Assembly (NCBI GenBank): GCA_036337435.1
Contig: JAYZEG010000038.1
Location: 1 to 44,651 of the forward strand
DNA: 44,651 nucleotides
Source: Myxococcota bacterium
Lineage (GTDB): Bacteria > Myxococcota_A > Bradymonadia > UBA7976 > UBA1532
Direction: 5' to 3'
This document shows, piece after piece, positions 23,379-27,805 of this stretch. Position 1 is the first letter of the stretch. Each line of letters starts with the position of its first letter. The position numbers and the translations under genes were made by a program. Below the pieces are notes generated by a model. That model worked only from the letters and a program-made list of their open reading frames with translations. It had not been told where the DNA came from and did not search any database.

Positions 23379-24362
23379 ATGAAACTAGCAACACGAAAGA
23401 ACGGAACCAGAGACGGTGAATTACTGGTCATTTCACAGGACAATACACGCGCTGTTCTGGCGGCGCGGATTGCACCAACAATGCAAGCAGCCTTGGATAA
23501 TTGGACCGCTCTCGCCCCGCAGCTGAGTGGGCTCTATGACGCGCTTAATGCGGGTCAAGCCGAGGGTGCCTTTGATGTCGATGTTGAACACCTTCACAGC
23601 CCGTTTCCTCGAGCATACGGTTGGGTCGACGGCAGTGCGTACATCAATCACATTGTTCTTGTGCGAAAAGCACGAGGGGCTGAGCCGCCGGAGACACTGC
23701 GAACAGACCCACTCGTCTATCAGGGGGGCAGCGATACCTTCTTGGGTCCGCGCGACGATATTCCCTTGGCCAATACAGCCTGGGGGTGCGACTTTGAGTC
23801 CGAGATTGCAGTCGTGATGGATGACACCCCTCAAGGTGTAAAAGCCGAGGACGCTGGCCAATACGTTCGATTGGTGATGCTCTGTAATGATGTCTCCCTA
23901 CGAAGTTTAATTCCGGGCGAGCTGGCTAAAGGTTTTGGTTTTTTCACCTCAAAGCCATCCTCCGCGTTCAGCCCATTTGCCATCACACCCGACGAGCTCG
24001 GCGATGCTTGGCAGGAAGGTCGGCTTCATCTGCCCCTCATCACTCATTTGAATGGCGCCAAATACGGCGATCCAGACGCAGGTCCAGAGATGCACTTCAG
24101 CTTTTACGAGATCATTGAACATGTCTGTAAAACTCGTAGTTTGGGGGCCGGCACCATCATCGGCAGTGGGACCATCAGCAATGAGGATCGAAGTCGCGGC
24201 TCTTCATGTCTCGCCGAGAAGAGAATGATCGAGAAGATCGATACAGGTGAGTTCAAGACTCCGTTTATGAATTATGGGGATCGCGTCACAATCGAAATGT
24301 TTAATGCCAAGGGTGAGAGTCTGTTCGGCCAAATTGACCAAACGGTCGTGCCCAAAGCATAA
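23379..24362 (+). CDS. fahA: Fumarylacetoacetate hydrolase
   Basis: MKLATRKNGTRDGEL, DGSAYINH, YQGGSD, DFESE, NDVSLR, GFGFFTSKP, GTIIGSGT. Adjacent to maiA and hppD. Confidence 0.9.
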   Translation: MKLATRKNGTRDGELLVISQDNTRAVLAARIAPTMQAALDNWTALAPQLSGLYDALNAGQAEGAFDVDVEHLHSPFPRAYGWVDGSAYINHIVLVRKARGAEPPETLRTDPLVYQGGSDTFLGPRDDIPLANTAWGCDFESEIAVVMDDTPQGVKAEDAGQYVRLVMLCNDVSLRSLIPGELAKGFGFFTSKPSSAFSPFAITPDELGDAWQEGRLHLPLITHLNGAKYGDPDAGPEMHFSFYEIIEHVCKTRSLGAGTIIGSGTISNEDRSRGSSCLAEKRMIEKIDTGEFKTPFMNYGDRVTIEMFNAKGESLFGQIDQTVVPKA

Positions 24363-24374
24363 GGATTAGAGCAG

Positions 24375-25019
24375 ATGTCCCTCATCCTTCGCAGCTATTG
24401 GCGTTCCTCATGTTCGTGGCGTGTCCGTATCGCTCTCAACATGAAGGGGCTTGAGTATCAAACGGTCCCTGTGCATTTGGTCGCTGATGGTGGCCATCAA
24501 CATACCCAAGCACATAGAGCACTCAATCCGATGCGGGAGCTGCCCGTCTTGATTGTCAATGGACAACCCATCGCTCAGAGTGTTGCCATACTCGAATACT
24601 TGGAAGAATCGCATCCCGAGCCGTCTTTGCTGCCAAAAAAGACACTTGAACGCGCGCTTGTAAGACAGATGGTGGAAGTCATCAACAGCGGTATTCAACC
24701 CATCCAAAACCTCCGAGTGATGCAACGACTGGGTCGTGAGTTTGGCCTGGACAAATCTGCTCAGCAATCATGGTCCCGCGGTTGGATTGAGTTCGGCTTC
24801 GAGGCACTTCACAATCTCGTCGAGCGCCACGGTGCGACCTACAGCTTTGGAGACCAGGTCACGCTCGCTGACTTGGCATTGATTCCTCAACTCTATAATG
24901 CGCGTCGATTCAATGTGGAACTAGAACGCTTTCCTAGACTGCTCGAAATTGAGTCGGCGTTGATTCAAATTCCAGCATTCATTTCTGCGCACCCAGACCG
25001 CCAGCCGGATGCAGTTTAG
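24375..25019 (+). CDS. maiA: Maleylacetoacetate isomerase (GST zeta)
   Basis: YWRSSCSWRVRIAL, QSVAILEYLEE, IQPIQNLRV, PQLYNARRF, AHPDRQPDA. Confidence 0.95.
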   Translation: MSLILRSYWRSSCSWRVRIALNMKGLEYQTVPVHLVADGGHQHTQAHRALNPMRELPVLIVNGQPIAQSVAILEYLEESHPEPSLLPKKTLERALVRQMVEVINSGIQPIQNLRVMQRLGREFGLDKSAQQSWSRGWIEFGFEALHNLVERHGATYSFGDQVTLADLALIPQLYNARRFNVELERFPRLLEIESALIQIPAFISAHPDRQPDAV

Positions 25020-25480
25020 CGCAGGTCGGGTAGAGCCTCCATCAGCTCGCTTAAATCGTGATTGAGTTGAACAAGACGATCTCTGGACAATGCGGTGTCA
25101 CCTGTCTGTAGGACCTCCATGATCAGTGGAAACAGAACTTGGTAAAGCCTGTCCCCATCGGCCGTTAAGTGCAAGTGGCTGAGCCGTCCATCGGACTGAG
25201 ACGCAACGCGCTCAACTAGACCTTTATCTAGCATCGAACGGGTTGCTCGACTCACGATTCCTTTGTCCATCGGTGTCATCGTGACCACGTCAACCGCAGT
25301 ACGTCCCGGTTGTTCTGCAATGGCCGCGAGGACACGCCATTGAGACAAATTGAGACCGTGTTTCTTTACGATGGCACTCGTTCGTCTTGCAATGCGGTCG
25401 GCTAAAACCGTCACTTGATAGGGCCAAAACTGATCTAATTTCAGGACGTTCGGCTCTTTTGATGTACTTTTCTTTTCCAT
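25016..25480 (-). CDS. MarR family transcriptional regulator
   Basis: LNLSQWRVL, MDKGIVSRA (wHTH), DGR...LTADG wing. Divergent from hppD. Its stop overlaps the maiA stop. Confidence 0.92.
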   Translation of the reverse strand: MEKKSTSKEPNVLKLDQFWPYQVTVLADRIARRTSAIVKKHGLNLSQWRVLAAIAEQPGRTAVDVVTMTPMDKGIVSRATRSMLDKGLVERVASQSDGRLSHLHLTADGDRLYQVLFPLIMEVLQTGDTALSRDRLVQLNHDLSELMEALPDLR

Positions 25481-25491
25481 GGTGCAATATT

Positions 25492-25521
25492 GTTGTAATC
25501 ACAACTTGATCTAATCACAAC
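25492..25521. promoter_or_regulatory. Candidate MarR operator in the marR/hppD divergent gap
   Basis: Inverted repeat GTTGT-AATC-ACAAC (25492-25505). TAATCACAAC is directly repeated at 25496 and 25512. Confidence 0.6.
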
Positions 25522-25565
25522 CAAAAACAGACCGTCACAGGTCCAGAGTTGTAGGGGTACACGCC

Positions 25566-26648
25566 ATGCCAGATTTATTCGAGAATCCAATGGGCCTATG
25601 TGGATTTGAATTTGTTGAATTTACGGCACCAGACAAAGGGGTTTTGGAACCTGTCTTCGAAAGCATGGGCTTCACAAAAGTTGCTCAGCATCGAACGAAA
25701 GATGTGCACGTCTGGCGTCAGGGAGATATCAACCTCCTATCCAATTATGAACCCAATACACCTGCTGCTTATTACGCCGCAGAACATGGACCCTCCGCGT
25801 GCGCCATGGGGTTTCGAGTCAAGAATGCGGCTGCAGCTTTTGAACTCGCCATCGAAAAGGGAGCGCAACCAGTCGAGGTTGCGTCGGGATTTAGTGAATT
25901 GCGATTGCCTGCTATCAAGGGCATTGGCGGGGCGATCATTTACTTTATCGACCGTTGGCAAGATGGCCAATCCATTTATGACATCGACTTCAATTATATC
26001 GATGGTGTTGAGAGACGACCCGAAGGCTGTGGCTTCAATGTAATCGATCATTTGACCCACAACGTTTACAAGGGTCGAATGGATTACTGGGCCAAGTACT
26101 ATGAGGACCTATTCAATTTTCGTGAAATTCGATTCTTTGACATTAAGGGCGAATACACCGGTCTTGTCTCCAGAGCTTTAACAGCACCCGATGGCTTGAT
26201 CCGGATCCCGTTGAATGAAGAGAAGTCTGAGAAAGTCGGTCAAATCGAGGAATACCTTCGTGAATATAAGGGCGAAGGCATTCAGCATATCGCATTCTCC
26301 TGTGATGACCTCATTGGGTGCTGGGACCGCCTCAAAGCCGCCGGCGTTTCATTTATGTCACCGCCACCCGAAACCTATTACGATATGCTTGGCGAGCGAT
26401 TACCTGGTCACGGCGAACCAACGAATGAACTCAAGGCGCGAGGGATCCTCTTGGATGGGTCAACCAGTGATGGTGATCCACGTCTACTCCTTCAGATTTT
26501 CTCGGAGAAAGCCATTGGTCCCATCTTCTTCGAATTCATTCAGCGAAAAGCGGATGAAGGATTCGGTGAGGGCAATTTCGAAGCACTTTTCAAGTCCATC
26601 GAGCGCGACCAAATGAAACGAGGCGTACTGAGTGAAAGCGCGAACTGA
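25566..26648 (+). CDS. hppD: 4-hydroxyphenylpyruvate dioxygenase
   Basis: [66 protein letters not shown]. Confidence 0.97.
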
Positions 26649-26660
26649 AGGGAGGACGTG

Positions 26661-27194
26661 ATGTCCGTCGACCTAAAAAGAATTCACCATGTTGCTTATC
26701 GTTGTAAGGACGCGAAAGAAACCGTTGAGTTCTATCAGCGTGTCTTGAATATGGATTTCGTACTGGCCATCGCCGAAGACGAAGTGCCATCGACTAAAGA
26801 ACCAGATCCGTATATGCACGTCTTCATGGATGCGGGCATGGGCAACGTTTTGGCTTTTTTTGAACTGCCTAATTCGCCCGAGATGGGTCGTGATGAACAG
26901 ACACCAATTTGGGTGCAGCACATTGCATTCGAGGTCGAGAGTATGTCGGCTTTAGAATCTGCCAAGGTTCATATTGAAGCTCAGGGTCTCGAGGTTCTAG
27001 GCCCTGTGAACCATGGTATTTTTAAATCGATTTATTTCTTCGATCCCAATGGTCACCGAATCGAATTAGCGACGAACACGGGTACGCCGGAGCAAATGCG
27101 TAAGTTGCACGCCGTAGCCCCTGCGATGATCGAAGAATGGAGTCAGACCAAGCGGGCACCCAAGCACGCTGCTTGGCTACATGAATCGGTTTAA
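26661..27194 (+). CDS. VOC (glyoxalase/extradiol dioxygenase superfamily) protein
   Basis: IHHVAYRC, YMHVF, LAFFE, VQHIAF, NHG-IFKSIYFFDPNGHRIEL. GGAGG 5 nt before ATG 26661; 12 nt after hppD. Confidence 0.9.
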   Translation: MSVDLKRIHHVAYRCKDAKETVEFYQRVLNMDFVLAIAEDEVPSTKEPDPYMHVFMDAGMGNVLAFFELPNSPEMGRDEQTPIWVQHIAFEVESMSALESAKVHIEAQGLEVLGPVNHGIFKSIYFFDPNGHRIELATNTGTPEQMRKLHAVAPAMIEEWSQTKRAPKHAAWLHESV

Positions 27195-27244
27195 AAAAAC
27201 GGGGTCGGCCGTCATGCTCTCGCTTTAGTTCCGCGTGACCTCAG

Positions 27245-27805
27245 TCACGCGTTGACCGCACTCTCGGCCCTATCGGTGGATGCGCAGACTTGAAGAAGGC
27301 CGAGTTCACGCATGATTTGTGCGCACCATTTATCGATTCTTGAATCGGTGAGCTCTGGCTCGTTATCCTCGTCGATCGCCAGTCCACAAAAAGCCTCTCC
27401 GTAAACAGCCAGGGAGCCATAGTACTCGTAGTCTGCTGTCGGCCAGAAACCACAATCTCCATGGGCCCCTTGCTCTAAGAACTTGCGATAGACAATGCCC
27501 ATTGCGTCTAGGAATGTTTCCGGATAACCAACCTGGTCGCCGAGCCCGAACATGACAACACGGGTTCCGGTGAAGTCGTACTTGTGGAGGTCGTCGTAGA
27601 ATTCAGCCCAATCATAAGGCAAATCACCCGCATCCCAGGTCGCAATGCCAAGTAATAAGACATCATACCCGAGCATCTCGTCTATGGTCCGGTCTTCTAT
27701 ATTTTTGCAGGTCGTGACCAGTTTTGGGCCAAGCTTATTGTGAATCTTGTCCGCGATATCTTTTGTAAAGCCAGTATTCGTGGCGTAAAAAATTCCAATC
27801 TTCAT
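27245..27805 (-). CDS. fldA: Long-chain flavodoxin
   Basis: IGIFYATNTGFT FMN-phosphate loop, LGIATWDAG, FGLGDQVGYPETF, FCGLAIDEDNEPELTDSRI. Confidence 0.92.
   Translation of the reverse strand: MKIGIFYATNTGFTKDIADKIHNKLGPKLVTTCKNIEDRTIDEMLGYDVLLLGIATWDAGDLPYDWAEFYDDLHKYDFTGTRVVMFGLGDQVGYPETFLDAMGIVYRKFLEQGAHGDCGFWPTADYEYYGSLAVYGEAFCGLAIDEDNEPELTDSRIDKWCAQIMRELGLLQVCASTDRAESAVNA

Follow-up and report, generated by a model that had tools for sequence, protein, structure and literature searches.

A predicted VOC-fold homogentisate 1,2-dioxygenase encoded beside hppD in a Myxococcota tyrosine catabolism cluster

This work reports that a VOC-fold protein of 177 amino acids (aa), encoded at positions 26661-27194 of a 44,651-nucleotide (nt) stretch of DNA from a Myxococcota bacterium (GenBank assembly GCA_036337435.1, contig JAYZEG010000038.1; the whole stretch is hereafter called the window), is with high confidence predicted to be a homogentisate 1,2-dioxygenase that fills the gap left by the missing cupin enzyme HmgA. 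An earlier reading of the window from its letters only (hereafter the sequence-only reading) had put forward a homogentisate 1,2-dioxygenase of the VOC fold, non-homologous with HmgA, and this proposal is now supported by four lines of evidence, because of which we adopt it here: homology to the Acinetobacter enzyme of PDB entry 9U42, the published genetics of Acinetobacter baumannii, the position of the gene directly behind hppD in 46 of 80 related loci, and the complementarity of its occurrence with that of HmgA. The enzyme type itself is already in the literature, with genetic work from 2022 and a structural and biochemical study from 2025.

Results

An ortholog of the Acinetobacter enzyme

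The window VOC protein is orthologous to the enzyme from Acinetobacter whose structure is PDB entry 9U42. In a phmmer search against the PDB, the best match was 9u42_A ('Glyoxalase', 182 aa), which was aligned to query residues 3-176 with an E-value of 1.5e-77, and the runner-up, 3kol_A, reached only 2.5e-08. An AlphaFold model of the VOC protein, built from a 37-sequence alignment and having a mean predicted local distance difference test score (pLDDT) of 92.6, likewise retrieved 9u42 as the top Foldseek match (E 1.5e-25, template modelling (TM) scores 0.85/0.89, 65% identity), followed by FosX, GloA2, Escherichia coli glyoxalase I and L-DOPA dioxygenase at a TMq of about 0.5-0.6. The structure is cited as that of a VOC-type homogentisate 1,2-dioxygenase of Acinetobacter (Seo, Hwangbo, Kim & Park 2025, Proteins 93:2150, doi 10.1002/prot.70020, as cited in PMC13572102, 2026).

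The genetic evidence comes from A. baumannii. In strain AB4353 no hmgA homologue was found, and a gene between hmgC and hmgR, whose product carries a 'type I ring-cleaving dioxygenase' domain, was thought by the authors to be inactive (PMC7646211, 2020). Strain DETAB-R21, in which a Tn2006 insertion splits the gene named hmgA, makes pyomelanin, and supplying hmgA on a plasmid abolished the pigment (PMC9431530, 2022). The hmgA-F primer of the latter study (Table S2) encodes M-T-F-A-I-K-K-I, with which the 9u42 chain begins in the phmmer alignment, and therefore the hmgA complemented in that study is the VOC gene. Full-text searches of the literature by topic did not turn up an article devoted to a homogentisate dioxygenase of the VOC type, and PMC11945678 held nothing informative on the identity of the gene.

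The family to which the protein belongs is large, with at least 8000 scored candidates, all within an E-value of 1e-5. Among the 120 matches listed, identity to the window protein is 84-100%, and the public names, where given, are 'VOC family protein', 'glyoxylase I family protein' or similar. The nearest named matches belong to Myxococcota and Bradymonadia.

Related loci place the VOC gene in the slot of hmgA

A scan of one genome per species gave at least 597 confirmed relatives, and the loci of the best 80 of them, with 70-87% identity to the window VOC protein, were analysed. Alpha-, Beta- and Gammaproteobacteria and Myxococcota are represented among them, along with a few further phyla. 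In 46 loci the gene immediately upstream of the VOC gene, on the same strand, is hppD; in 29 the VOC gene is immediately followed by a fahA homologue; maiA is found in 26; and at least one of the three genes occurs within 6 kb in 58. The common order among the 80 loci is hppD-VOC-fahA-maiA, the VOC gene taking the slot expected for hmgA. Searching the 80 loci with an HmgA query from locus L008 found no HmgA. At the level of the genomes, HgmA_C matched in only 2 of the 80 and HgmA_N in 5, namely G073 (1/47) and then G101, G108, G113 and G120 (4/33), so that 75 of the 80 are without an HgmA_N match.

Another arrangement was seen in Comamonadaceae-type loci (L085:4080-6531; also L070, L077, L080 and L087), where the VOC gene is preceded not by hppD but by a FAD_binding_3 hydroxylase and a small DUF2783 protein, and where an MBL-fold gene is often near. 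This hydroxylase and DUF2783 pair may resemble the two-component 3-hydroxyphenylacetate 6-hydroxylase, which likewise produces homogentisate.

No cupin HmgA is detected in the window genome and its close relatives with the VOC ortholog

The window assembly (G000) comprises 4.38 Mb in 95 contigs and is 87.3% complete. Neither the window nor the whole assembly holds a cupin HmgA by PF04209 (HgmA_C), by TIGR01015 at an E-value of up to 1, or by PF20510 (HgmA_N); the whole-genome search for HmgA that the sequence-only reading had suggested was thereby carried out with three models, and it returned no match. The VOC ortholog is found together with hppD and maiA in G001-G003, three genomes from the genus of the window genome, and in G007, from its family, and it adjoins hppD in G001, G002 and G007. 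Neither HgmA_C nor HgmA_N matched in any of these five genomes (0/5, the window genome included), among them G001, which is 100% complete, belongs to the same genus and has the hppD-VOC pair. Nine other relatives have an HgmA_C match at an E-value of 1e-28 or better and are without a VOC ortholog, and in G025 a canonical HmgA is accompanied by a VOC gene of 59% identity that does not adjoin hppD. The situation that the sequence-only reading had named as speaking against its proposal, an intact hmgA elsewhere in this genome and in most genomes carrying the VOC gene, is not the one found: the 87.3%-complete assembly gave no match, and 75 of the 80 carriers have no HgmA_N match.

Three types of homogentisate dioxygenase candidate across the phylum

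An even sample of 201 genomes was drawn from the phylum of G067, with a completeness of at least 90% requested. The orthologs in it are at least 64% identical to the window VOC protein; the paralogs reach at most 42%, and a clear gap lies between the two groups. The VOC ortholog occurs in 15 of the 201 genomes, all 15 of which have hppD, versus 66 of 201 overall with hppD above the cut-off. maiA was found in 65 genomes, hppD together with maiA in 61, and canonical HgmA_C in 44.

HgmA_C alone misses a short cupin HmgA-like protein, which scores 20-28 bits with this model versus 59-63 bits with HgmA_N, and therefore the VOC-bearing genomes were re-tested with HgmA_N, as were all 20 genomes of the even sample that have hppD and maiA and are without a canonical match. 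Among the 61 genomes with hppD and maiA, 41 have a canonical HmgA and 9 the short cupin (50 with a cupin in total), and 14 have the VOC ortholog, 9 of them alone and 5 with a cupin; in 2 a VOC paralog of 42% identity is the sole candidate, and all 61 are thereby accounted for. In 8 of the 61 no HmgA candidate other than the short cupin is present, and G255 carries both the short cupin and the VOC gene. The profiling that had been suggested with the sequence-only reading came out on its side, the VOC gene occurring with hppD (15/15), without HgmA_N (75/80) and as the sole type in 9/61, the exceptions being the 5/15 with a cupin.

The short cupin, of about 377-395 aa, is encoded between hppD and fahA-maiA, as in L094:1198-2484 (G273) and L093:1832-3004 (G202). 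The VOC paralogs (41-42% identity; L100:2547-3158 in G146 and L101:2574-3224 in G242) keep the same invariant His, Tyr and Glu, and they are the sole candidate homogentisate dioxygenases of G146 and G242, two genomes with hppD and maiA and without a cupin or the ortholog. The paralog genes are not clustered with the pathway genes, and that of G146 adjoins a gene for an aromatic hydroxylase dependent on flavin adenine dinucleotide (FAD). The hppD neighbourhoods of both genomes hold phhA and an Lrp regulator, and no alternative dioxygenase was found in them.

Conserved residues and proposed reaction

The VOC protein matches only Pfam models of the VOC superfamily (glyoxalase/dioxygenase), with PF00903 the best. 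All six motifs singled out in the sequence-only reading as holding candidate ligands are present, and of their residues H9, H10, Y51, H53, F66, F67, H87, H118, R133, E135 and L136 are invariant in 37 aligned members, as are Y125, D128 and P129. In the phmmer alignment, query residues 85-136 are matched to residues 212-266 of the catechol 2,3-dioxygenase XylE (1mpy_A), where H87 and E135 fall on what we take to be the metal ligands of XylE, and H118 and Y125 on what are presumably its second-sphere His and Tyr. Residues 116-135 match a pattern taken as the PROSITE extradiol ring-cleavage signature, and so do all of the 37 members (37/37).

From these correspondences we infer a metal site, presumably with Fe(II), on a 2-His-1-carboxylate triad of H10 (or H9), H87 and E135, with H118 and Y125 as likely second-sphere residues by analogy with type I extradiol dioxygenases. 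The chemistry expected is an extradiol-like use of O2 on a para-diol, homogentisate. In the pathway so proposed, HppD would make homogentisate, the VOC enzyme would open its ring with O2 to give maleylacetoacetate, MaiA would isomerise this to fumarylacetoacetate, and the hydrolase of the FAH family would split the latter into fumarate and acetoacetate, the cluster probably being controlled by the divergent MarR gene. Maleylacetoacetate is the likely product because the maiA and fahA genes lie in the cluster.

The gene cluster and its regulator

The features of the cluster, which runs in the order fahA-maiA / MarR / hppD-VOC, are collected in Table 1. The clustering of these five genes, as well as the strong ribosome-binding site and the start of the VOC gene 12 nt past hppD, had been described in the sequence-only reading; all five open reading frames are in place, the profile matches agree with their naming, and both the GGGAGGA motif and the spacing are confirmed. 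With the hppD stop codon at 26646-26648 and the ATG of the VOC gene at 26661, the intergenic gap is 12 nt, and the two genes are probably co-transcribed. Translation could also begin at a GTG at 26658, though this is less likely, and would then give a protein of 178 aa.

Table 1. Features of the homogentisate cluster and its MarR-hppD spacer in the window
Feature	Position	Strand	Basis
fahA-like hydrolase, short FAH type, 327 aa	23379-24362	+	PF18288 FAA_hydro_N_2 98.2 bits, PF01557 111.9 bits
maiA, glutathione-dependent maleylacetoacetate isomerase, 214 aa	24375-25019	+	TIGR01262 269.5 bits vs cut-off 171.05
MarR-family regulator, 154 aa, divergent from hppD	25016-25480	-	PF12802 59.3 bits
Possible operator in the 85-nt MarR-hppD spacer	25492-25521	.	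read by eye
hppD, 4-hydroxyphenylpyruvate dioxygenase, 360 aa	25566-26648	+	TIGR01263 388.1 bits vs cut-off 277; PF14696 219.9 bits
Shine-Dalgarno-like GGGAGGA, 4 nt ahead of the VOC-gene ATG	26650-26656	+	sequence
VOC-fold gene, 177 aa, predicted homogentisate 1,2-dioxygenase	26661-27194	+	PF00903 66.9 bits vs cut-off 20.6

The fahA-like hydrolase presumably acts on fumarylacetoacetate as the last enzyme of the pathway, a role assigned from context because in 29 of the 80 loci a homologue of it immediately follows the VOC gene. As an equivalog of TIGR01266 the gene failed, with 16.6 bits against a cut-off of 375. On the other side of the VOC gene, and convergent with it, lies a long-chain flavodoxin gene (27198-27805; TIGR01752, 180.6 bits), and a terminator-like hairpin on the strand of the flavodoxin gene (27213-27198) is found between the two.

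The MarR protein is presumed to be the local regulator of the cluster. In its spacer to hppD, two patterns were read by eye, namely GTTGTAATCACAAC at 25492-25505, with inverted arms of 5 nt, and TAATCACAAC, which occurs twice, 16 nt apart, at 25496-25505 and 25512-25521. These repeats are a possible operator for MarR and could also be due to chance; a repeat search of the spacer gave no inverted repeat of at least 8 nt. The counts of promoter-like sites (1 versus 3.5 expected) and terminator-like sites (5 versus 4.3 expected) offered nothing usable. In Alteromonadales, a MarR-family regulator of hmg genes, 'HmgS', has been predicted, the regulon of which includes 'hmgA'; the available parts of that article and its supplement say nothing on whether this 'hmgA' is the VOC gene (PMC5343134).

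MarR homologues also adjoin hppD in the Maricaulis-type loci L011-L013 of Alphaproteobacteria, which hold the modules most similar to that of the window and to which the window proteins are 85-87% (VOC), 77-80% (hppD) and 55-60% (MarR) identical. In a quick tree, the window VOC protein groups with those of its own genus and Maricaulis, at Shimodaira-Hasegawa-like approximate likelihood ratio test (SH-aLRT) values of 86-90, below the mark of strong support. Such likeness, next to nearest named matches in Myxococcota and Bradymonadia, suggests that the MarR-hppD-VOC module has probably been transferred between phyla.

Discussion

The closest known counterpart of the window protein, the 9U42 enzyme, is likewise a single VOC domain (177-182 aa between the two), and its gene too, as PMC7646211 indicates for A. 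baumannii, sits among homogentisate genes in a genome that lacks a cupin HmgA. The window protein differs from it in that the nearest named matches are not those of Moraxellaceae, and in its setting, in that hppD-VOC stands here with a MarR gene, whereas the A. baumannii gene lies between hmgC and hmgR, according to the same report. The cupin HmgA/HGD enzymes (PF20510, PF04209, TIGR01015) presumably share the reaction, as well as the place in pathway and operon, but have an unrelated fold and another size, with about 430-450 aa in the canonical and about 380-395 aa in the short form. The type I extradiol dioxygenases, such as XylE, single-domain BphC and L-DOPA dioxygenase (6ON1, matched by the VOC model in Foldseek at a TMq of 0.61), have the PF00903 domain in common with the window protein; however, their substrates are catechols and not a para-diol (hydroquinone) as proposed here, and none of the NCBIfam extradiol models comes near its cut-off. 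LinE and PcpA are VOC-fold hydroquinone dioxygenases that cleave the ring next to a hydroxyl, and are longer proteins of two domains.

Several observations weigh against the window protein being a homogentisate dioxygenase. In 22 of the 80 loci, none of hppD, fahA and maiA lies within 6 kb of the VOC gene; the Fisher p of 5e-6 obtained for the even sample is overstated, since related genomes are not independent; 9U42 holds Zn and not Fe, according to its title; and Acinetobacter sp. Tol 5, in which the cluster is present, did not grow on homogentisate or 4-hydroxyphenylpyruvate, as reported in PMC13572102. The absence of HmgA from the window genome, taken alone, is weak evidence because the assembly is only 87.3% complete. 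Additionally, a cupin co-occurs with the VOC ortholog in 5 of the 15 ortholog genomes of the even sample, canonical in G139, G155, G246 and G289 and short in G255, and in G155 (L096) and G289 (L097) hmgA, a long-type fahA, an MBL-fold gene, a FAD aromatic hydroxylase, the VOC gene and maiA form one cluster. In the clusters of G155 and G289, the VOC enzyme may duplicate the function of HmgA or act preferentially on a different hydroquinone. These co-occurrences and shared clusters, together with the incomplete assembly, also favour an explanation in which the VOC protein would be an accessory or detoxifying enzyme, acting for example on oxidised homogentisate or another hydroquinone, with the true ring-cleaver lying in the unassembled 13% of the genome. 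We judge this very unlikely, given that the 100%-complete genome G001 of the same genus has no HgmA_C or HgmA_N match, that the genomes of close orthologs are in 75 of 80 cases without an HgmA_N match, and that in A. baumannii the loss of the VOC gene alone leads to a homogentisate pigment, which its return removes (PMC9431530).

Two further explanations were weighed. The protein could be an extradiol dioxygenase for another diol or hydroquinone, such as homoprotocatechuate, gentisate or a substituted hydroquinone, that stands beside hppD by chance: its best NCBIfam match is catechol 2,3-dioxygenase (TIGR03211), at 40.8 bits versus a cut-off of 320.2, no NCBIfam model scoring above its own cut-off for the VOC protein; the extradiol signature is kept throughout the aligned members; and some members adjoin a FAD aromatic hydroxylase. 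This explanation is highly improbable, with hppD directly upstream in 46 of 80 loci and present in all 15 ortholog genomes of the even sample, and with the title of 9U42 and the A. baumannii genetics indicating homogentisate. A glyoxalase I (lactoylglutathione lyase) would agree with public names such as 'glyoxylase I family protein' and with the Foldseek list, which FosX, GloA2 and E. coli glyoxalase I head after 9u42. Glyoxalase I and FosX/FosA/FosB indeed resemble the window protein in fold and size, at a TMq of about 0.55, but they are only 21-25% identical to it and differ in context and chemistry, and their family models stay below the cut-offs, with glyox_I (TIGR00068) at 30.2 bits versus 120. 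As the genomic context is that of homogentisate catabolism, and as the title of Seo et al. (2025), in the form cited in PMC13572102, also counts against it, a glyoxalase I is hardly credible here. The assignment as a VOC-fold homogentisate 1,2-dioxygenase is retained as very probable.

A wider picture can be drawn from the distribution, and we offer it only tentatively, as one that may well not hold in all its parts. In this picture, the VOC type would be one of three widespread and interchangeable types of homogentisate dioxygenase, along with the canonical and the short cupin, and the only recognisable type in 9/61 (about 1 in 7) of the genomes with hppD and maiA; it would have moved between phyla as an hppD-VOC module, with MarR in addition; the 41-42% identical clade of G146 and G242 would perhaps be a fourth type; and the copies beside a FAD hydroxylase in genomes with canonical HmgA would perhaps serve another hydroquinone.

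In conclusion, what this work contributes is the annotation and a view of how the three types of homogentisate dioxygenase are distributed, the enzyme type itself having been published previously. With the predicted VOC-fold enzyme, an apparent hole in the catabolism of tyrosine and phenylalanine is closed for the window genome. A hole of this kind is also seen in many Alpha-, Beta- and Gammaproteobacteria and Myxococcota, the copies of which are, among the matches listed, named 'VOC family protein' or 'glyoxylase I family protein'. Tools that seek only the cupin HmgA would wrongly predict homogentisate accumulation or pyomelanin in organisms with the VOC type.

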